A DNA stretch of 64,000 nucleotides, taken from positions 32,001 to 96,000 of IMG/VR virus record IMGVR_UViG_3300035208_006553; one strand, 5' to 3'. Of the stretch, positions 31,527-64,000 are shown one piece after another. Below the pieces are notes generated by a model. It made no database searches. It was not told the DNA's origin and was given only the letters and a program-made list of their open reading frames with translations. The stretch comes from a virus (taxonomy: Duplodnaviria > Caudoviricetes). The position numbers were made by a program, and so were the translations under genes. Every line of letters starts with the position of its first letter. Position 1 is the stretch's first letter.

Positions 31527-31712
31527 ATGTATCAGTCTGATAATATAAAAAATAAATTTAGATTAAAAATATTTTTATTGTTGAAGAAAAATACAGATCA
31601 ATTTTTAGAAACAAAAAATGAATTAATAAAGAAAAATGTATTAAGACGGATAAACAAATTATTAGACTGTATTTATTTATTTATTAAATCTAAAAGAATT
31701 AGTTTAAGCTAA
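31527..31712 (+). CDS. Small basic protein, paralogue of 35128-35298
   Basis: KIFLLLKKNTD...LRRINKLLDCIYL versus KIFLLLKENTD...LRRINKLLTCIYL. Confidence 0.55.
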   Translation: MYQSDNIKNKFRLKIFLLLKKNTDQFLETKNELIKKNVLRRINKLLDCIYLFIKSKRISLS

Positions 31713-31724
31713 TTTGAGGATACA

Positions 31725-32664
31725 ATGAACCAAGAACTAAACAAAATAATAAGCGATTTAGAATATGCTGCTTATAATTTATGTAACGGCAAAAAAGATA
31801 CAGATTTACCGCCGGGAATAATTAACTCTACTGGCGCAGAGGATTCTCTTTTAATTGCTATACGTGATTTGAAAGAGATAACCAATCGCCACGAACCGCT
31901 AGTTAGCGGGAAACTTGCGGACTTTACAGTTTCTGAGCTAATGATAAAAATGAATGAAATTATCGGACAATATCCAGTGCAAGGTAATTATGCAGATGAT
32001 GGAAGATATACTTACCCCGGTAGATGGAATGCTTTACTTAAATACATAAAAGAAAAATGAAAACAGTGATTACTAAAAACGGAAATCTTGCTTGTAACAT
32101 TACAAGTGACGAATTGGAACAAATTAAAGAAGATTTGCGACCGACAACAAGACGCAATGATTCTCTATACGAAATATTTAAGCAAATAGCAGAAGAAGAT
32201 AAAAAGGTGAATCCAGAACTTTACGAAGATACTACCCGCTAATAATTACAACGAAACGATGTGACGGTTAATTTAACACGAACATAAAAGAAGAAATAAT
32301 GGATTTAAACCAACTTTATATTGAAAATTGTGAGGGCTTTGACGAGTATATGCCCGATGGTTCTTGCCGAAACGGATTGCGAATGACACTTGATGGATTT
32401 CAAAATGCACTAAGAAAATTGAGTGGTCAAATTGAACCGCAAGTTATAAAGCAAACGGCGGAAGCAATAAGAGAACTTTTACAGTTAGCACAAGCAACCC
32501 ATACTTATTGTGAGGATGGTTATTATAGTTGCCCGAAAGCTGAAGGTGGATGCTATAATGGTGCTTATAAAGAAGATGAATGTAATTGCGGTGCAGACAA
32601 ACAAAACGAACGAGTTACAGAATTAAAAACAATTTTAATGAATGATAGACGTTTGACGTTGTAG
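31725..32664 (+). other. Cassette-region CDSs 31725-32060, 32057-32242 and 32299-32664 (hypothetical)
   Basis: attC arms inside the coding regions (GTTAGCGGG 31902, GTTATAAAG 32443); stop at 32242 lies in CCCGCTAAT. Confidence 0.6.
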
Positions 32665-32999: not shown

Positions 33000-33197
33000 A
33001 TATAGCGGAAATGCGTTTAGCCGGACACGGGAATTTAATAAAATAAATTTGAGGTTGATATGAAAGATTACCAAGTAACAATAGACTTAGCAAAAAACAT
33101 TTGAACATGGAAGAGGTTGACCCCGATGTATGGGCTGCAGACGTGGCAAAGCTCATACGAATAATTGAAAGTATTCCAGCTGAAACGCTGATTAGGC
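33000..33197 (-). repeat. Degenerate attC-like site (both core triplets mutated)
   Basis: ATAGCGGAAATGCGTTTAGCCGGA ... TCCAGCTGAAACGCTGATTAGGC; closely resembles the 34394 site. Confidence 0.6.
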
Positions 33198-33421
33198 GAG
33201 GGCGTTCTTTGCCCGATGTGGCTTGCGGTAATTGTAAACAAATAGAGTTTTGGTATATGAAAATAAAAATCCAAGACGAATGGATGGACGGAGTAAGCGG
33301 GGAATATAATTTTGTTAAACAATACTGCGATGCAATTACTGACCACGACTGGAAAATAATAAAAGTTACACAGTATAGAGGCGACAAGGAAGAAGAAATT
33401 GAAAGCAAGCCATCTGCCTAA
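33060..33421 (+). pseudogene. Cassette gene with an apparent frameshift in A6
   Basis: GAGG RBS and ATG 33060; one extra A at 33092-33097 joins it to the 33101-33421 frame. Confidence 0.5.
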
Positions 33422-33606
33422 CGGCTGAGCCATAACCCGCCGAGCGGGAATTGAAAACTAAAATAGGAATTGAAAAATGAAAAACATTAACGATTGGATA
33501 ACAGAAAATTTTCTTGCAAGCGAGAGAGAAAATAAATTAAATGATCTTAAAGAAATAATTTTATCCGACCGAGCAAGCGAGGTCGGTGTTAATGGCATCG
33601 TTATGC
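33416..33606 (-). repeat. attC-like site
   Basis: GCCTAAC.GGCTGA.GCCATAACCCGCC pairs with GGTCGGTGTTAATGGC.ATC.GTTATGC. Confidence 0.8.
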
Positions 33607-33935
33607 CGAAAATTGGTGAACCGGCACTTAGTAACTGGACATTGGTTTGCAACTTGTTAGATGAGTTTCTGCAAGCTAATCGCCACGAAGTTTTTGTTAT
33701 AGCGAGTGAGCATACCGAAGGTAGCTCTGCGAACGGTGCGGTTGCGGACGTACAGGAGTTGTTAAGGGCAATAAGAGATTTAGACCAAAGGGAAAGGTTG
33801 GTTCTCACTATGTATTACAACGAAAAATTAACGTTAAAAGAAATTGCATCTATCTTTGATTGGACGATTGACGCAACACAAAAACAGTTTGAAAATATTA
33901 TAAACAAACTAAAGATAGCAACCGCATCGCTATAA
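33477..33935 (+). CDS. Cassette protein with C-terminal sigma70 region-4 HTH
   Basis: AIRDLDQRERLVLTMYYNEKLTLKEIASIF; contains two attC arms (33600, 33696). Confidence 0.75.
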   Translation: MKNINDWITENFLASERENKLNDLKEIILSDRASEVGVNGIVMPKIGEPALSNWTLVCNLLDEFLQANRHEVFVIASEHTEGSSANGAVADVQELLRAIRDLDQRERLVLTMYYNEKLTLKEIASIFDWTIDATQKQFENIINKLKIATASL

Positions 33936-34060
33936 CGTAGTTGCGGCTAAACTGCACCGACATAGGAAAAAATAATTAAATGAATTATAAATTCACGCAT
34001 ATCATCAAATGCGAAAATCTAAGACACCGTAAGGTGTCAGATTTGAGCCGCTGGTTATGT
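33930..34060 (-). repeat. attC-like site
   Basis: ATAAC.GTAGTT.GCGGCTAAACTGCACC pairs with GGTG(T)CAG(A)TTT(G)AGCCGC.TG.GTTAT. Confidence 0.88.
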
Positions 34061-34070
34061 GGAAAATTTT

Positions 34071-34153
34071 GGAAGGTTGCGAGCAATGGCGCTCAAGCGG
34101 TCTTGAAAACCGTGCTATCGGCAACGATAAGGGTTCGATTCCTTAACCTTCCG
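34071..34153 (+). tRNA. tRNA-Ser (anticodon TGA)
   Basis: Acceptor GGAAGGT/ACCTTCC, anticodon arm GCGGT-CTTGAAA-ACCGT, long variable arm, GGTTCGATTCC; no encoded CCA. Confidence 0.85.
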
Positions 34154-34156
34154 CTA

Positions 34157-34285
34157 GGTCGAGTTCGATTCTCGATGGGTTACTGACATGCTGGTGCGAA
34201 TGGAGTTAGGTTCGATTCCTAATGATTACGGTCTTAGAAATAAGATAACTCTGAGAGCTGAGTATGACAGCCGGGAAAGACCGGC
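34157..34285 (+). ncRNA. Structured inter-tRNA element with two T-arm-like hairpins and a terminal hairpin
   Basis: TCGAG-TTCGATT-CTCGA, TTAGG-TTCGATT-CCTAA, GCCGG-GAAAGA-CCGGC. Confidence 0.45.
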
Positions 34286-34289
34286 GAAT

Positions 34290-34372
34290 GGAAGATTGGC
34301 AGAGTGGTAATGCAACGGCTTGCTAAGCCGCACAACAGAAATGTTGCAGAGGTTCGATCCCTCTATCTTCCG
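34290..34372 (+). tRNA. tRNA-Ser (anticodon GCT)
   Basis: Acceptor GGAAGAT/ATCTTCC, TGGCAGAGTGG D arm, CGGC-TTGCTAA-GCCG, long variable arm, GGTTCGATCC. Confidence 0.9.
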
Positions 34373-34393
34373 CAAGATGCGAAAAATTTTTCC

Positions 34394-34598
34394 ACATAAC
34401 GGAGTTGCCCATAAGCGGACACGGAAATTTAATAAATAAATTTGAGGTTACAAATGCAAGACGAAAAATTAAACGAAATTAAAAGACGGATAGATGTTAC
34501 TTACCAGGGGGACAGAAATCTTGCCGTAATGTTACAAGATGTTATTTATCTCTATAAAAAACTGGAAGAAAGTGTTCCGCTTGATGGGCTGGTTATGA
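34394..34598 (-). repeat. attC-like site
   Basis: CATAAC.GGAGTT.GCCCATAAGCGGACAC pairs with GTG(T)TCCGCTT(G)ATGGGC.TG.GTTATG. Confidence 0.88.
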
Positions 34599-34747
34599 CG
34601 CAAGCCGACTACTTAAAAGAAATTGAGACAGCCATAGAAAACACAGTTAATGAATATGACCATATATTAAATATGAAGCGATACCCGCAAGTTGAAGATA
34701 TGGAAAAGTGGATTAGGAATTTGAGAGAAGCCATACAACCATTTTAG
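34454..34747 (+). CDS. Cassette hypothetical protein
   Basis: GAGG RBS and ATG inside the attC loop. Confidence 0.6.
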   Translation: MQDEKLNEIKRRIDVTYQGDRNLAVMLQDVIYLYKKLEESVPLDGLVMTQADYLKEIETAIENTVNEYDHILNMKRYPQVEDMEKWIRNLREAIQPF

Positions 34748-34755
34748 GCTTGTCG

Positions 34756-34887
34756 GTATAACGGATCAGCGACAACCCGCAAGCGGTAGTTTAATAAAAA
34801 CTAAATTGATAAAGGAATGATATATGAAAACAAAGAAAAATAAACCGACAAGCGATAGCGCAGTCGGCGTTGGTTGCGTAGTTAGTT
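34756..34887 (-). repeat. attC-like site
   Basis: TATAAC.GGATCA.GCGACAACCCG pairs with CGG(C)GTT(G)GTTGC.GTA.GTTAG. Confidence 0.78.
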
Positions 34888-35099
34888 TGCCGAACGAAAT
34901 TTTGATAGAGGTTGAAGGCAGACAAAAAAGAGTTTTAACGAAAGATTATGTAACCGCAAAGACTAAACAATTGCAAGAATTTGGTTACACAAAATTAACA
35001 GAAGAAGAAGTTTCTTCTGAATTACAAAATATATTAAGCAATAAACCGCTTAATGTTATTGGGATGTTTATGAAAGATGACATCGTGAGGTCAAACTAA
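34824..35099 (+). CDS. Cassette hypothetical protein
   Basis: Start in the attC loop; stop TAA is the core of the next site. Confidence 0.65.
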   Translation: MKTKKNKPTSDSAVGVGCVVSLPNEILIEVEGRQKRVLTKDYVTAKTKQLQEFGYTKLTEEEVSSELQNILSNKPLNVIGMFMKDDIVRSN

Positions 35100-35304
35100 C
35101 GTAGTTGAAACTAAAGCGTGAGCGAACATGGAAGACCAATTGAGAGTAAAGATATTTTTATTGTTGAAGGAAAATACGGATTTGTTCTTAACAACAAATA
35201 ATAAATTAATAAGAAGAAACTCATTGAGGCGAATAAACAAATTATTGACCTGTATTTATCTATTGAACTTAAAAGAGCGAATCGCTTTGAGTTTTTAGTT
35301 ATAA
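35094..35304 (-). repeat. attC-like site with a whole ORF in its loop
   Basis: CTAAC.GTAGTTG.AAACTAAAGCG pairs with CGCTTT(G)AGTTT.TTA.GTTAT. Confidence 0.78.
35128..35298 (+). CDS. 56-aa protein inside an attC loop (not in ORF track)
   Basis: MEDQLRVKIFLLLKENTD...; paralogue at 31527. Confidence 0.55.
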   Translation: MEDQLRVKIFLLLKENTDLFLTTNNKLIRRNSLRRINKLLTCIYLLNLKERIALSF

Positions 35305-35329
35305 ATTTTTTGGCGGAAGGAGCAAGACA

Positions 35330-35515
35330 ATGAAAATTATATTAGTACCACATTGTAAAAAATGCCCTCACGGTGCGCAATGGAATTTAGAAGGAACTGA
35401 ATATATGTGTGGAAAGAAAACAAAAATTAATTCTGATAAAAATATACCGGAATGGTGCCCTTTGATGGAAGCAACGGAGTTCTTAAGAAAGGTTAATAGC
35501 CAAAAACAATTATAA
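35330..35515 (+). CDS. Small Cys-rich cassette protein
   Basis: C..CPH...C...IPEWCPL; AAGGAG RBS; stop in TTATAAC. Confidence 0.65.
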   Translation: MKIILVPHCKKCPHGAQWNLEGTEYMCGKKTKINSDKNIPEWCPLMEATEFLRKVNSQKQL

Positions 35516-35794
35516 CGTGGCGCGGGCTTACCCGTTTGCGGTGAATGAAAAACTAAATTAGGAGAAACAACAATGATAGGTTTTAACAGAGTAGCAAAAT
35601 TTGATGATGGCAGATTGATGTATAGAAATATAATAACTAACGACTATACAAGGCTCTCTTTTGTGTATAGGGACGACATTAAATATAAACCTTACCCAAC
35701 TATGCAAATAACTTGTACAGGGTGGAGTTTTAGCTGGTGGAGGTTTTGGGTATGGCACGAAAAGAAGCAAATCAGGCTGAAACGCTAGTTAGCC
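35510..35794 (-). repeat. attC-like site enclosing ORF 35573-35788
   Basis: TTATAAC.GTGGC.GCGGGCTTACCCGTTTGC pairs imperfectly with GCAAATCAGGCTGAAACGC.TA.GTTAGCC. Confidence 0.65.
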
Positions 35795-35945
35795 AAGCCG
35801 CTTCTCGGGCGGTGTTGCTTGCGGAAATGAGAGAAGGATTACGAATAGCAATGAATAATTGGAAACGCTGTTATTATGGATATGGGAAAGAAGTTATGAA
35901 AGAAACAAGCGAAGAAACTTTGGCTAATTTACATTTAGATGATGA

Positions 35946-36410
35946 GTGGAGTGGATTAAATTAAACAAAACACAAAGCGTGTTAATGAAAATGAGCGAAG
36001 GTAATCCCGGAGCTTTAACAACGATGATGCAAATAATGATGGAACACGATAATATTGATCCGCAGGCGATGATGGGTGGAATGGGTGTGATATTATTATT
36101 TGACACATTCCAAATTTATGGCTCATCAATTTATATTTTGTTCAACGACCAATGTAACAGGGATGTGAGGGAGTTATTGATGCTAATGAGAGCTACGCAA
36201 CTTGGGTTATTCAGTAGTCGCAACCTTAAACAGATTGCCGATGACCAAATGGGAAAACATTTATTAAGCAAAGAGCAGATGGATGAACTTGATAAAAAAG
36301 TATGTGAGCAATTAGAACAATTTACAACCAGAGAAGCGTGGGAGAACGCAAAGAAGCATCCGTATAACGGATCTCCGTTTGTGCCGGTTGCGACATTAAT
36401 TAAAAAATAG
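35946..36410 (+). CDS. Hypothetical phage protein
   Basis: MSEGNPGAL...IYGSSIYILFND.C; reads into a degenerate attC arm at 36362. Confidence 0.6.
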   Translation: MEWIKLNKTQSVLMKMSEGNPGALTTMMQIMMEHDNIDPQAMMGGMGVILLFDTFQIYGSSIYILFNDQCNRDVRELLMLMRATQLGLFSSRNLKQIADDQMGKHLLSKEQMDELDKKVCEQLEQFTTREAWENAKKHPYNGSPFVPVATLIKK

Positions 36411-36498
36411 ATTTGGAGAAACAAGATGGGAGAAAACGAAACTAAGAATTGCGAACAAACGATGTGTCACTTAAACAGCAGAGACAAAAGAGAAAATT

Positions 36499-36660
36499 AT
36501 GCAAAGTAAAATAAAAGATTTTTGTAAAAGACATAAACCAGCAAACAAGACAATGACTTATTTAGCACATCTTGAATGGGTAGAACGAAAAATAAAGCAA
36601 GGGCATCAACAGTATGAATGCCCCAAGTGTAGGAGGTGGTTATTTAAGTGTGAAATGTAA
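36499..36660 (+). CDS. Small zinc-finger-like protein (53 aa, not in ORF track)
   Basis: ...GHQQYECPKCRRW. Confidence 0.5.
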   Translation: MQSKIKDFCKRHKPANKTMTYLAHLEWVERKIKQGHQQYECPKCRRWLFKCEM

Positions 36661-36705
36661 GTTTTTATAATTAAATATTTATTATAAAATTAAAGGAGAA
36701 ATGCA

Positions 36706-37059
36706 ATGAGTTAGAATATTAAATTTATAGGTGAACGGAAATGTGTTAAGGAATTAATAGAGACAGCACAATTACCTGAAGAAGTAAGACAATGTATTTT
36801 AACTACGTTAAGTGAAGAAGATACTACCAAGAACAGTGTGAGAGTAGAAGGATGCAGACATACTTGGACAGGCAAAGAAAGTAGTTACAGTAATGTAGTA
36901 AAGTTAGTAGTTGAGCCCATAGATATTATATATCCGAAAATGTGTATAACACCTATTCGAGAATGTATTGAAAGTTGCGACAAAATATTAGAATATATGG
37001 AAGCGTTCATGGTTTCAGAGATAAAAATAAAATTAGAAAATACGATAAAGCGAGGTTAA
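36706..37059 (+). pseudogene. ORF with an amber codon at position 3
   Basis: AAGGAG upstream; ATG AGT TAG AAT ATT... in frame with 36838-37059. Confidence 0.45.
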
Positions 37060-37060
37060 T

Positions 37061-37651
37061 ATGTTTTTTAATGAATGGTATAATAAAAACACAAAATCTT
37101 TTCTTGATAAAAGCACAAAAGAGAAAATGTACACGGCACATAATTACGGATTTGAGGAGGGTTCAAAGAGGAACAAATATAACATAACGCAGAACTATTC
37201 TGCAAACGGTCCATTATTTTACAATCTTGAAGATAGAGAAGAATATTTAGCAATACTAAAATTTATAAAGTTGCTAGGGGTAGAAAGAATAGCCAATTTT
37301 ATTATGAATCAAAATAAATCAATTAAAGGATTACAAAACAACAATGATTTATTTGTCAAGGCATACAAAGAACAAACAGAAAAAAAGTAAGTAGTTCATT
37401 CGTAGAAAATCAAAATAACAATTACTTTAGTTACGAATACAAAAAGGAGTAAAACGATGAAAGAAAAAATTACTTTAAGTCAATTACGTAAAGACGAAAA
37501 ATATCGCAAGATGTCTCTCAAAAAACTTGAACATATTATTAATTGGAATATTAGTCACGGTGATTATAATACTTTAGAAGGTGAATATGCTATTGATAAG
37601 GCGCGCAATTTATTAAGTAAATGGACAAAGAAGATTATTGTTAAACGTTAG
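37061..37651 (+). other. Two hypothetical CDSs (37061-37390, 37457-37651)
   Basis: GAGG and AGGAG RBSs. Confidence 0.55.
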
Positions 37652-46657: not shown

Positions 46658-47436
46658 TAGACTGGAGACAAATATTAAGCTGGCAAGTAGAGACTAACGA
46701 ATTTTACGAATTAGAAAGATTACTCAATAATAAACATTACTCTTATCATCTAGAAGGAAATACATTTATTATTGATCATGAAGGATATGTATATCTTCCT
46801 TTTCTTACATCTCTACCTAATAATGTACAATTTAATAACAGAGGATATGTATATCTTTATTATCTTACATCTTTACCTAATAACATACAATTTAATAATA
46901 GAGGAGATGTAGATCTTAATTCTCTTACATCTCTTCCAGATAACATACAATTTAATAACAGAGGAAATGTATATCTTAATTCTCTTACCTCTCTACCTAA
47001 TAATGTACAATTTAATAATAGAGGATATGTAAATCTTGCTTCTCTTTTATCTTTACCTAATAACAAATATGATATATTTAAAAACGATGGAGTAATTTCT
47101 TATAATCACCGTAACTCTCAATTTAATCCTAAAGATAGAGAAAAATTGAGTTGGAAAGAAGTTGAATGGTCAGATCTTAAAGGTTGGTTAGTAAAAGATA
47201 CTACAGGAGGTCGTCCTTATTGGGCTGAAGAAGATTATAAAGGAGAAGTGTATTATCTTGTAATTAGTGTAAGTGAGCTACCAAATAAAAATTTAGATAA
47301 GTTTAATATGATTGCACTTCAAGGATCTAGTCAAGATGGTGTAATTAATGAATATGAACAAGGTGCAAAATTTACAGAACCCTATTGGGTATATAAAGAT
47401 TTACGAAATATAATACCTATACGAAAAATATTTTAA
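46654..47436 (+). CDS. Protein with 20-aa leucine-rich (LRR-like) repeats
   Basis: About five GxVxLxxLTSLPNNxQFNNR units. Confidence 0.75.
   Translation: MIDWRQILSWQVETNEFYELERLLNNKHYSYHLEGNTFIIDHEGYVYLPFLTSLPNNVQFNNRGYVYLYYLTSLPNNIQFNNRGDVDLNSLTSLPDNIQFNNRGNVYLNSLTSLPNNVQFNNRGYVNLASLLSLPNNKYDIFKNDGVISYNHRNSQFNPKDREKLSWKEVEWSDLKGWLVKDTTGGRPYWAEEDYKGEVYYLVISVSELPNKNLDKFNMIALQGSSQDGVINEYEQGAKFTEPYWVYKDLRNIIPIRKIF
46783..47064 (+). repeat. 60-bp tandem repeat (about 4.7 units); second copy at about 63865-64000
   Basis: GGA NAT GTA NAT CTT NNT TNT CTT ACA TCT..CAA TTT AAT AAY AGA. Confidence 0.9.
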
Positions 47437-56797: not shown

Positions 56798-56920
56798 GCA
56801 TAACTGATCAGCGATTAAACGCACCGGGCATAAAAAGAGAGATTAAAAGTATAATTAACATATTAAACAATAAAATAGCCGCACAAAAGATAGGTGCCGT
56901 TCTTGATTATGTAGTTAGTT
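56798..56920 (-). repeat. attC-like site
   Basis: GCATAAC...GATTAAACGCACC pairs with GGTGCCGTTCTTGATT...GTTAGTT. Confidence 0.65.
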
Positions 56921-57131
56921 TTTGAGGAGCGAAAATATGCAATTACATCCAGCAACATTAATTCTATTGGATAAAGAGGATATTATAGATGCTATTAAAC
57001 AAGCAATTTATAAAGAATATCCAGAGTTTAGATCAACATACAATATTATCATTGATACGAAATTGGAAAGAGTAGAAGTAAGAGCAATTTGTTATACGCC
57101 CGTTAAAAAGGCAAATGATAGCGACGAGTAA

Positions 57132-57327
57132 AACTAACAGAGTTGGTTTTAAAGGGTTTTACGGAATAAACACTAAAATAAAATTGAGGTAAAAATGTTA
57201 AAATGTAATAACAAATTTTGCTATAATAATTCAATAGCTGGATGTTCACTTGAGTTTGAAACACAAACTGATTGCGATACATATAATGACTATAATGAAA
57301 GCAACCTTGTTGAAAACCGAGTTAGCC
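57132..57327 (-). repeat. attC-like site
   Basis: CTAAC.AGAGTT.GGTTTTAAAGGGTT pairs with AACCTT(G)TT(G)AAAACC.GA.GTTAG. Confidence 0.82.
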
Positions 57328-62701: not shown

Positions 62702-64000
62702 TTGAAATTGAGCAATCCTTTAAGCTACCAAGAGTTTCCAGAGAGTGTAAAGCAATTTGTATCTTACTGTTTTAAAGATTGTCTATCTAAGTATTCTTTG
62801 TTAGATAATAAATTACAAGCACTTTACATTTCATTTGAACCTCGTCCCTTACAATACCCAGATTATGTTAAAGCAGAGCTTATTTTACCTAACAAAATAG
62901 CTTATTTCGATAAAGGAAATATTAGGTGGGATGGTATTATGCATGAAATTACTCATTTAATTCAGTATCACCTAAACGGAAAAGAAGAAAATATACCCTA
63001 TCTTTCTAATTATAGCAAGGTTGCATCGTTTAATTTTGAGAATTATCAAAAAGATGAATCTGAAGTACATGCTTTTAAAATACAAGCAGCTTTTGTGGAA
63101 TATAGAAAACAAAGATTAAATTGGAATAGTATTAAAGTAAGTAATTCATCTTTAAATAATCAAACTACTTATTACATATATGATGCTAAAACTGGAATAT
63201 TTATAAAAGAAGTTTATAGTTTAGAAGAAATCAGTCAGTTATATGGAATTTCTCCAGCATTTTCTAAACGTGCTATTGAGAACAACTGGGCTATGAAAGG
63301 TGTTTATATTTTAGATGCAAGTAAGGAAAAAAAGAAAAGATTACGTATACCTAATCGCCAAGAAAGAGAATCAGAGATAAGAGGAGTAAAGATAATAGGA
63401 ACAAATCCCGAAACAGGAACTGAATATTCTTTTAATTCTGTAAGTGAAGCTGCAAGAGAATTACATATTAATAGACTTAGTATAATTCATGTATTAAAAG
63501 AAAGACAGGGTACTGCAGGGGGAATGAAGTGGAGGTATGCAGAGAATTCTAAAAAAGAAATAAACAAGAATCAATGGCTTAATAAAACATTTGTATTAAA
63601 TGATTCTACTAAATTAGAAGTAGTTGATGTGAACGATGCACAGGAACCTATTTTTGTGTTGCGAGATGTCAACACTAAAAAGTTATTTAGATATAATGAA
63701 AGTTCGTTAAGAGAAAATATTCTAAAAGGTATGTTAGTTGAAATTTCTCAAAATAAACTCTCTTGGCAAGTAGAGACTAACGAATTTTACGAATTAGAAA
63801 GATTACTCAATAATAAACATTACTCTTATCATTTAGAAGGAAATACATTTATTATTGATCATGGAGGAAATGTATATCTTTATTCTCTTACATCTCTACC
63901 AGATAACATACAATTTAATAACAGAGGATATGTAGATCTTGATTCTCTTACATCTTTACCTAATAACATACAATTTAATAATGAAGGAAATGTATATCTT
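62702..64000 (+). CDS. Multidomain protein truncated by the window end: HExxH zinc peptidase, NUMOD1-like HTH and LRR-like repeats (not in ORF track)
   Basis: Frame open from TTG 62702 to the end: MHEITHLIQ..SEVHA; FNSVSEAARELHI..TAGGMKWRY; KLSWQVETNEF followed by repeats. Confidence 0.75.
   Translation, partial: MKLSNPLSYQEFPESVKQFVSYCFKDCLSKYSLLDNKLQALYISFEPRPLQYPDYVKAELILPNKIAYFDKGNIRWDGIMHEITHLIQYHLNGKEENIPYLSNYSKVASFNFENYQKDESEVHAFKIQAAFVEYRKQRLNWNSIKVSNSSLNNQTTYYIYDAKTGIFIKEVYSLEEISQLYGISPAFSKRAIENNWAMKGVYILDASKEKKKRLRIPNRQERESEIRGVKIIGTNPETGTEYSFNSVSEAARELHINRLSIIHVLKERQGTAGGMKWRYAENSKKEINKNQWLNKTFVLNDSTKLEVVDVNDAQEPIFVLRDVNTKKLFRYNESSLRENILKGMLVEISQNKLSWQVETNEFYELERLLNNKHYSYHLEGNTFIIDHGGNVYLYSLTSLPDNIQFNNRGYVDLDSLTSLPNNIQFNNEGNVYL

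Follow-up and report, generated by a model that had tools for sequence, protein, structure and literature searches.

A phage accessory gene array of alternating, hairpin-closed modules with TAAC and GTTA cores that resembles bacterial integrons but follows other rules

The 64-kb stretch of DNA analysed here (the window), from a large phage, carries, at 33.4-36.4 kb and in a second island at 56.8-57.3 kb, chains of small units whose ends are complementary to one another, which raises the question of what these units are and whether they are gene cassettes of the integron kind. The initial annotation had taken the complementary ends as a signature of circular cassette intermediates, in which the R'' and R' parts of an integron site are rejoined. 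The arrangement does resemble bacterial integrons, but other rules apply to it, and on balance we lean towards the reading that the chain is built of two alternating classes of hairpin-closed modules that are recombined at TAAC and GTTA cores by a structure-directed mechanism.

Strict alternation of the two classes, with inverted-repeat ends on every module, was found in the window, in the related contigs L004 and L005 and in the phage records G001 and G002. In a B module, which begins at GTTA and closes at TAAC, the cargo is the C-terminal part of a protein, a complete small gene or tRNAs. A modules extend from TAAC to GTTA and hold a ribosome-binding site, a start codon and N-terminal leader, or a whole tiny ORF, and genes thus start inside the TAAC-to-GTTA sites. 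The sequence common to all sites is the 4-nt core only, and of the 58 sites with an open frame, 45 have one that crosses GTT as a codon.

All modules of the window lie on the + strand. The first region opens with an A module (33419..33603) that supplies ORF 33477 with its ribosome-binding site, its start and its first 41 codons; in L006-L008 this module is present at 98.5% identity, flanked there by other neighbours. The C-terminal part of this ORF (33477-33935), a linker and sigma-70 region 4, is carried by the B module at 33696..33936, whose ends pair over 10 bp, or over 19 bp in total where the pairing continues across a 31-nt insert, as initially annotated; the B start at 33696 also stands behind another A module in L004. 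Next come a 125-bp A module (33933..34057) consisting of TAAC, 6 nt, a 6-bp box, about 90 nt, a bulged G, a 6-bp box, 2 nt and GTTA, and a B module (34054..34400) that carries a tRNA-like remnant besides two tRNA-Ser genes and whose ends pair over 13 bp, a bulge and a further 4 bp. The A module at 34397..34595 contains the start of ORF 34442 and is closed by a bulged 6 + 16 bp stem that is present in the minimum-energy DNA fold, and the C-terminal part of the same ORF (34442-34747) lies in the B module at 34592..34762, where end pairing is imperfect (own ends -12.6 kcal/mol compared to -6.6 kcal/mol for hybrid ends). ORF 34824-35099 is divided likewise between an A module with its start and a degenerate box pairing (34759..34884) and a B module with its C-terminal part (34881..35100), whose ends pair over 9 bp, a bulge and more pairs. 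A whole 56-aa ORF (35128-35298) is held by the A module at 35097..35301, matched in L006 at 94.7% identity with edges at TAAC and GTTA, and the B module after it (35298..35516) has its own ribosome-binding site and ORF (35330-35515) and ends that pair at about 15 of 18 positions with one bulge. The region closes with an A module (35513..35791) containing ORF 35573-35788 and the start of ORF 35737, with weak box pairing, and a B module (35788..36368) with weak end pairing, whose first 27 nt recur without change where the island-2 module at 57321 begins. The second island comprises an A module (56801-56917), a B module with 9/9 end pairing and its own ribosome-binding site and ORF (56914-57138) and another A module (57135-57324). 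A decayed B module lies at 31902..32243, its ends paired 9/9 and its right core reading TAAT instead of TAAC. Pairing is poor in some units (35788/36365 and the A modules at 34759, 35513 and 56801).

B-module starts show two recurrent features. Many B modules begin with a peptide like V-M/I-x-K-I-A-E, which we take as a candidate likeness to T4 prohead-protease sites and which might serve capsid targeting or proteolytic cleavage, and some B starts are common to many units over 16-20 nt.

The six end pairs on which the initial annotation rested (left arms starting at 33696, 34054, 34881, 35298, 31902 and 56914, right arms ending at 33936, 34400, 35100, 35516, 32243 and 57138) are all present in the sequence. 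The 13-nt pair 34054/34400 is the longest perfect inverted repeat in the window at 50-450 nt spacing, and reaches 17 bp with one bulged base. Exact-match counts alone are weak evidence, as the inverted-repeat background is high (252 perfect inverted repeats of at least 9 nt in the window), and GTTA-anchored pairs of at least 9 nt number 8 genome-wide compared to about 2.4 expected by our own estimate. Own ends were therefore compared with non-cognate ends, with the geometry of the other, independent stem class as the sole basis for placing the unit ends. The median alignment score was 11.5 for a unit's own ends (n = 13) and 1.0 for 516 non-cognate pairs (p = 4e-7), and in independent metagenome contigs it was 10 (n = 22) compared to 1.5 (n = 2622; p = 5e-9), which rules out chance as the source of the pairing. 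DNA duplex energies over 22 units from the window and two related contigs averaged -15.4 kcal/mol for own ends and -6.9 kcal/mol for the hybrid ends that meet in the linear array, with own ends favoured in 21 of the 22 (Wilcoxon p = 4.8e-7), including six out of six window units (own ends -9.7 to -15.0 kcal/mol, neighbouring hybrid ends -4.2 to -6.6 kcal/mol). The complementarity is thus specific to the unit, as had been claimed, but such pairing does not require a circle: in the linear array it forms just as well, as a stem closing each unit.

The end complementarity first noticed is in fact the B-module stem. B stems are 13-19 bp long and have one extra base on the 3' (right) arm, 9 bp from the core; this base stands at position 10 in 25 out of 32 units and, in the independent set, in 13 out of 22 cognate pairs. 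A stem of this length with a conserved bulge far exceeds the 7-bp R box, which does not fit the R''/R' reading initially given to it and suggests that the B stem is a selected structure of its own.

A stems have a fixed geometry too: TAAC, 6 nt, 6 bp and 6 bp on the left, then 6 bp, a bulged G, 6 bp, 2 nt and GTTA on the right. A search with this fixed geometry found 23 A units in the window and its relatives, with at least 18 different box sequences that were nearly all paired 6/6, and metagenome contigs added 61 more. As a negative control, about 130 kb of unrelated viral loci searched on both strands gave one match; these loci were retrieved by the half-site DNA probes 35776-35792 and 35285-35301, which matched unrelated viral contigs only. 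The six positions past the bulge played no part in selecting the 39 distinct A units, yet 76% of them were Watson-Crick paired with the bulge assumed compared to 32% without it, and the bulged base was G in 32 of the 39. Both stem classes covary and keep their geometry. The pairing arms lie 100-570 nt apart, requiring long single-stranded stretches for the stems to form, and whole-site folds were weakly better than those of shuffled sequences (z -1.1 to -3.0), one being worse than its shuffles.

That the units move was borne out by comparison between contigs. A modules, B modules and A+B pairs were each found between unrelated neighbours in related contigs, and the units are mobile modules rather than terminators, because identity between contigs starts and stops exactly at the GTTA and TAAC cores. 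An A+B unit is 99.7% identical (megablast) in L010/L011, with the identity edges at TAAC; a B unit with a methyltransferase is identical from GTTA through TAAC between L004 and L051; and at position 1470 of L004 the end of the island-2 A module is joined to the start of the island-1 B module, with GTTA alone being shared. Several junctions share nothing beyond the 4-nt core. ORF 33477 has chimeric homologues, in which some parts are shared and others are not. Long contigs at about 18x make up the flanks in run X3, but 32.7-37.1 kb is split into short contigs at 8-167x depth; nine contigs reach 33696 from a different sequence and do so exactly there, and joints of this kind to other upstream sequence were seen in two runs. 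Neither a circle junction nor an excision product was seen in the assembled contigs, in which rare junctions cannot appear; one joint in X4 goes back from 35319 to 33447 with 33 nt on its short side, but it lies off the cores and was not read as a circle. Searches for inverted modules in the window and eight related contigs, a small sample, gave no minus-strand matches at E 1e-4.

Arrays are present in phages that share few or no proteins with each other (G001 and G002, of which G001 shares no protein with the present phage), and the array sites recur in landfill and groundwater metagenomes from several studies. No relatives were found among GenBank phages, where the tRNA genes were the sole match and the best DNA polymerase match was 31% identical, and viral contigs searched with two window proteins yielded no related loci.

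The integron is the system with which the array invites comparison. Read strictly, successive G|TT points would bound a cassette, the TAAC-to-GTTA segment would be attC, and an IntI-type integrase would excise circles in which the R''/R' box is rejoined. The + strand of an A module is indeed laid out like an attC bottom strand (PMC5027507, PMC7439510): its 5' and 3' ends bear AAC and GTT, the inner box is paired and the 3' arm has an extrahelical G. Across the 39 units the fold has a covarying box of 6+6 bp with a bulged 3'-arm G, although there is one bulge here and the second is in the other stem class. Some A modules, at 113-127 bp, are within the attC size range, the preference of own over hybrid ends is as this reading has it, and virulent phages are known to carry attC clusters without an integrase (CALINs; PMC9892861). 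More broadly, the array shares with integrons and CALINs (Qi et al. 2023, PMC9892861; Nivina et al. 2016, 2020, PMC5027507, PMC7439510) its small, promoter-poor accessory genes, sites set by structure rather than sequence, unpaired spacers, orphan DNA methyltransferases as cargo and, as in CALINs, the absence of an integrase nearby. We nevertheless judge the strict integron reading unlikely. Integron crossovers fall at a single point, between A and C of the bottom-strand AAC, and a cassette therefore travels together with its attC. Here identity edges lie at TAAC as well as GTTA, and both A modules and A+B pairs are found to have moved independently of the B module to which they should belong. 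Of the consensus RYYYAAC...GTTRRRY (PMC5027507) only 4-5 nt are kept: the constant part is TAAC/GTTA, often ATAAC/GTTAT, and the purine/pyrimidine pattern is broken at one or two of the other positions in most sites, a minority fitting it. The unpaired spacers are 6 nt on one side and 2 nt on the other rather than 5-6 nt per arm (PMC5027507), and the TAAC-to-GTTA distance is 113-370 nt compared to 57-141 bp for attC, which lies downstream of the cassette ORF, so that most sites exceed 141 bp and contain ribosome-binding sites, gene starts, N-terminal coding sequence or whole ORFs. Genes here also lie on the strand that resembles the attC bottom strand, and the gene-bearing segment is itself closed by a stem, the long and bulged B stem described above.

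Nor was an integron-type integrase found in the three records or among the ORFs near the arrays. Six-frame searches of the present record gave no tyrosine recombinase (PF00589), serine recombinase (PF00239) or Y1 transposase (PF01797), and six-frame translations of G000, G001 and G002 contained nothing matching PF00589 at E <= 1, although these records may be incomplete (CheckV 61, 52 and 25%). A Pfam scan of about 50 ORFs in or near the arrays found DnaB, primase, PD-(D/E)XK nuclease, NinG and methyltransferases, and no recombinase.

That no recombinase was found within or near any array favours a scheme with no dedicated enzyme, in which the stems would stall replication or draw general recombination (RecA, PD-(D/E)XK exonuclease, NinG/Rap, SbcCD-like), with template switching or microhomology joining at the hairpin bases and selection for intact modules sharpening the junctions, as with the PeSLs of T4-type phages. 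General recombination genes are encoded by the array phages (RecA and a Rad50-like ATPase in the present phage, PD-(D/E)XK and NinG in G001 and several contigs), and the B starts held in common over 16-20 nt could support short-homology exchange. PeSL-mediated shuffling is documented, and the mini-circles proposed for it have been detected (PMC2839356, PMC4122927). PeSL cassettes likewise occupy a hyperplastic phage region of small accessory genes, where repeated intergenic elements bound the swapped modules, but PeSLs are conserved direct repeats (a promoter and a local terminator hairpin) recombined by homology, whereas here each unit has a long-range stem of its own, and neither a promoter nor a terminator consensus shows enrichment. 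Such a scheme is, in our view, improbable: it sits poorly with junctions that have the 4-nt core alone in common, and with bulge positions and spacer lengths that are kept over many unrelated stem sequences, the latter suggesting that shape is recognised and that the hairpins are not accidental. The general recombination genes also vary among the array phages, NinG being found in one of the three records only and G001 having no protein in common with the present phage.

A third possibility is that the stems act in RNA and are conserved at that level, in a polycistronic early transcript whose processing, stability or translational coupling they would serve, recombination being a by-product. All stems do lie on the coding strand, and their bulges are without exception on the 3' arm. 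Ribosome-binding sites and start codons are enclosed by A stems, and next to the tRNA genes there is a stem like those at which RNA is processed. Mispairs, however, numbered 13 of the G:T (G:U) type and 16 of the A:C type in A stems and 2 and 4 respectively in B stems, and the lack of a wobble excess points to A stems acting at the DNA rather than the RNA level. In B stems mid-ORF sequence is paired with the stop codon, and cleavage there would destroy the message, the same kind of stem bounds coding, non-coding and tRNA modules, no Rfam family matched, and junctions lying exactly at the cores would be left unexplained; we regard this account as very unlikely. Other candidates were rejected: a MITE or transposon with terminal inverted repeats (inverted ends are present, but direct duplications do not flank B modules, the units interlock and no Y1 transposase was found), terminators (terminator-like sites do not lie systematically at unit ends) and translational bypassing from the stop codon to the next GTT, which was dropped because the codons before the stop are unlike the landing site. 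Promoter-like sites were not enriched (20 compared to 22.9 in shuffles), and no long word was over-represented genome-wide.

Two further known systems share parts of this organisation. The pdif modules of Acinetobacter plasmids, which are acted on by XerC/XerD, have two strictly alternating classes with inversely oriented flanking sites, adjacent pairs between direct sites can excise and single modules are replaced between relatives, and the pdif element has no dedicated recombinase because host Xer does the work (PMC13141974). In pdif, however, the arms of the 28-bp site, with its 6-bp spacer, are conserved protein-binding sequences in double-stranded DNA, whereas the arms here vary among modules and covary within a module, and fixed indels, in the form of the bulges and the 6/2 spacer, set the two site orientations apart. 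Modules bounded by dif sites also occur inverted, which was not seen here, and genes in the present array read through the sites. In shufflons and multiple-inversion systems (R64 Rci/sfx, Min, Gin) an ORF crosses the site in a fixed frame, combining a constant N-terminal part with alternative C-terminal parts, and neighbouring sites are inversely oriented, as they are here, but the segments invert and the system encodes its own recombinase; the modules here keep one orientation and no recombinase was found.

Returning to structure-directed recombination at the cores, a recombinase, which may be host-encoded, would recognise the stems and bulges on folded single-stranded DNA and cut at the cores, in the way that integron integrases act on attC. 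Directly oriented sites could free circles of A+B or B+A, and single modules would be exchanged by crossing over when two genomes infect the same cell. As GTT is usually a codon, exchange at GTTA could also make new in-frame protein fusions. We tentatively propose, as a possibility rather than a probability, that the array is a distinct phage-borne cassette system and not a degenerate integron, built of leader and cargo modules, in which a recombinase acts on folded strands at 4-nt cores, moving whole accessory genes between unrelated phages and assembling in-frame proteins.

Mosaicism of phage accessory genes is usually ascribed to rare illegitimate or short-homology recombination, whereas the joints described here are exact and defined by structure. 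Should a recombinase, dedicated or co-opted, act on these joints, integron attC would no longer be the only natural case of structure-specific recombination, and in the new one sites lying within coding sequence would be both tolerated and exploited; so far, attC sites embedded in this way have been demonstrated only as designed synthetic versions (PMC7439510). The exchange of modules also offers phages a concrete route for trading anti-defence-type cargo, such as orphan methyltransferases, tRNAs, a sigma-like domain and an RNA-repair-type HAD domain, and the same route would build new small proteins from parts.

The linear IMG/VR virus record (108,379 bp, CheckV completeness 61%), of which the window is bases 32001-96000, has a G+C content of 30% and carries essentially every gene on the + strand. 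It encodes a family A DNA polymerase with an N-terminal UDG domain, DnaB, RecA, a GroEL-type chaperonin, a Rad50-like ATPase and adenylosuccinate synthetase, and no close relative of it was found among GenBank phages. The G+C content of window 33-37 kb is 0.35-0.40, above the remainder. A ~115-bp repeat, which seems to be an in-frame module recurring in several large genes, has at least 8 near-identical copies in the record (window 46681-46800 and 63764-63880 and six more past the window end, including those at genome 99454, 100749, 103617, 107322 and 108282), and the record's contig terminates within one of them.

TAAC stop codons followed by a purine-rich 6-nt spacer occur seven times within window 33419-36365 and again at 56801 and 57135. 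A 6-nt box lying directly behind TTG or CTG ends 2 nt before each GTTA and is reverse-complementary to the box after TAAC and its spacer, so that each TAAC-to-GTTA stretch (A module) is bounded by a stem that continues, past a single bulged base in the 3' arm, into six further paired positions. A search with this fixed geometry returned 23 units from the window plus related contigs (at least 18 distinct box sequences), further units from two IMG/VR records and 61 units from metagenome contigs, compared to one match in ~130 kb of unrelated viral loci searched on both strands. Among 39 distinct units the outer six positions, which played no part in unit selection, were 76% Watson-Crick when the bulge was allowed for and 32% when it was not, and the bulged base was G in 32 units. 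The A stems are a second, independent class of stem, which defines the units.

The initial annotation had described complementary ends for the stretches running from GTTA to TAAC (B modules), and all six end pairs that it quoted (left arms at 33696, 34054, 34881, 35298, 31902 and 56914) were located in the sequence. The pairing that it described across an insert at 33696/33936 does resume beyond the 31-nt insert, giving 19 bp in total, and the 13-nt pair around two tRNA-Ser genes is the window's longest perfect inverted repeat in that spacing class. GTTA-anchored pairs of at least 9 nt number 8 genome-wide, with ~2.4 expected. Short inverted repeats are common in such A+T-rich DNA (252 perfect ones of at least 9 nt in the window), and therefore the proposed check of own against between-unit pairings was carried out, with B-module ends set solely from A-module geometry. 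Median alignment scores were 11.5 for own ends and 1.0 for non-cognate ends (p = 4e-7), and in an independent metagenome set 10 and 1.5 (p = 5e-9), the low-scoring cognates of that set probably being long-spaced units with an undetected degenerate site in between. By DNA duplex energy, 21 of 22 units, including 6/6 in the window, paired more stably through their own ends than as the linear hybrid site, the means being -15.4 and -6.9 kcal/mol respectively. B stems are 13-19 bp long, with an extra right-arm base after exactly 9 bp in 25/32 units and in 13/22 cognate pairs of the independent set. On these results the end complementarity is real, specific and general across a family of arrays.

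The units were also claimed to be mobile, and this is borne out by comparison between contigs, in which DNA identity starts or stops precisely at the TAAC and GTTA cores. Two related contigs (L010 and L011) have an A+B unit in common from TAAC to TAAC, the window and contig L006 share the A module at 35097-35301 from TAAC to GTTA, and contigs L004 and L051 have a methyltransferase B module in common from GTTA to TAAC; in L004, an A-module end from window 56.8-57.3 kb is fused to a B-module start from 33.4-36.4 kb, with only GTTA in common. Homologues of the multi-part ORF at 33477-33935 are chimeras retaining the N-terminus with other C-termini, the sigma-70 region 4 domain with another N-terminus, or an 18-residue linker with both termini different. 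In a metagenome run with a near-identical phage the flanks assembled as long contigs at ~18x and 32.7-37.1 kb as short contigs at 8-167x, and in nine contigs from two runs different upstream sequence joins precisely at 33696. Of the other array-bearing records, G002 has few proteins in common with this one and G001 none. G001 (L029 and L030) is a 37.4-kb record with direct terminal repeats whose array spans the record ends (35586-37399 and 1-2523), between a DnaB/NinG/PD-(D/E)XK replication-recombination block and a terminase gene.

Array cargo includes N6/N4 and MT-A70 methyltransferases, an RNA-repair-type HAD domain, a sigma region 4 domain and tRNAs; adjoining the array of a related metagenome contig is a helicase with an intein (L040 902-3292; Intein_splicing and Hint matches). 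Of the 58 sites having any open frame, 45 have one that reads through GTT as a codon, and exchange at GTTA therefore usually preserves frame. Many B modules (for example window 33600 and 35298, L004 4435 and L010 608) open with peptides that are alike (V, M/I, x, K/F, I/L, A, E/D) and coded by the left stem arm, and that may resemble T4 prohead-protease or capsid-targeting motifs. The ORF at 33477-33935, itself a multi-part chimera, contains another in-frame GTTA at 33600, and 33600-33695 resembles a B-module start joined to an A-module tail (its final 18 nt are like those before 31902), suggesting that modules may fuse by deletion. Window 33061-33421 looks like a decaying unit; its ATG at 33061, behind the usual leader, meets a stop 14 codons on, the long frame resumes at TTG 33101, and its GTTA-type core reads ATTA (~33192). 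Between the two tRNA-Ser genes is a tRNA-like remnant (34155-34289) with the T-arm motif repeated, in place of which contigs of runs X4 and X5 have 7 other letters (joint 34154 to 34293). A 56-aa ORF (35128-35298), wholly within an A module, has a paralogue 3.6 kb upstream at 31527-31712 (77% DNA identity over 140 nt), and in run X3 its stretch has the top summed depth of contigs, 167x compared to ~20x, indicating that this module is very common in that community.

Mispairs of the G:T type do not exceed those of the A:C type in A stems (13 and 16) or B stems (2 and 4), B stems join the middle of an ORF to its stop codon, and the same stems enclose modules whether coding, non-coding or tRNA-bearing, which favours action of the stems at the DNA level, possibly with an RNA effect besides. 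An Rfam search matched tRNA only, and promoter-like and terminator-like patterns showed no organisation around the units, in agreement with the earlier view that these are not terminators.

The same base pairs fit both a circle signature and stems closing the modules of a linear array, and sequence alone does not separate the two; the runs compared were assembled contigs. In a circle formed by a B module with an A module, the B stem, cores and A stem would form a single continuous imperfect helix, while in a linear array each stem would close its own module. The initial annotation was correct as an observation and right as to mobility, but its inference of circles is unproven. Mechanistic kinship with integrons is favoured by the A-module + strand being laid out like an attC bottom strand, with an extrahelical G on the 3' arm, and by sites likewise defined by shape and not sequence; designed attC sites can sit within coding sequence (PMC7439510) and virulent phages are known to carry attC clusters without an integrase (PMC9892861). 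The dif modules of Acinetobacter plasmids also form two strictly alternating classes, each with inverted ends, on which host XerC/D acts and from which module pairs excise (PMC13141974), but their arms are conserved protein-binding sequences whereas the arms here covary. Reading the units strictly as integron cassettes, as originally framed, is too narrow, as junctions fall at both TAAC and GTTA, the pairing far exceeds a 7-bp R box and has its own bulge, 4-5 nt of core consensus and no more are retained, spacers are 6 nt and 2 nt, unlike the 5-6 nt on each arm of attC (PMC5027507), most sites exceed 141 bp, gene starts lie inside sites, and no tyrosine recombinase was found in the three viral records (the window's being 61% complete) or near the arrays examined. 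The best-supported picture is of stem-closed modules of two classes that alternate along a chain and are recombined at the 4-nt cores by a mechanism that is probably structure-directed.
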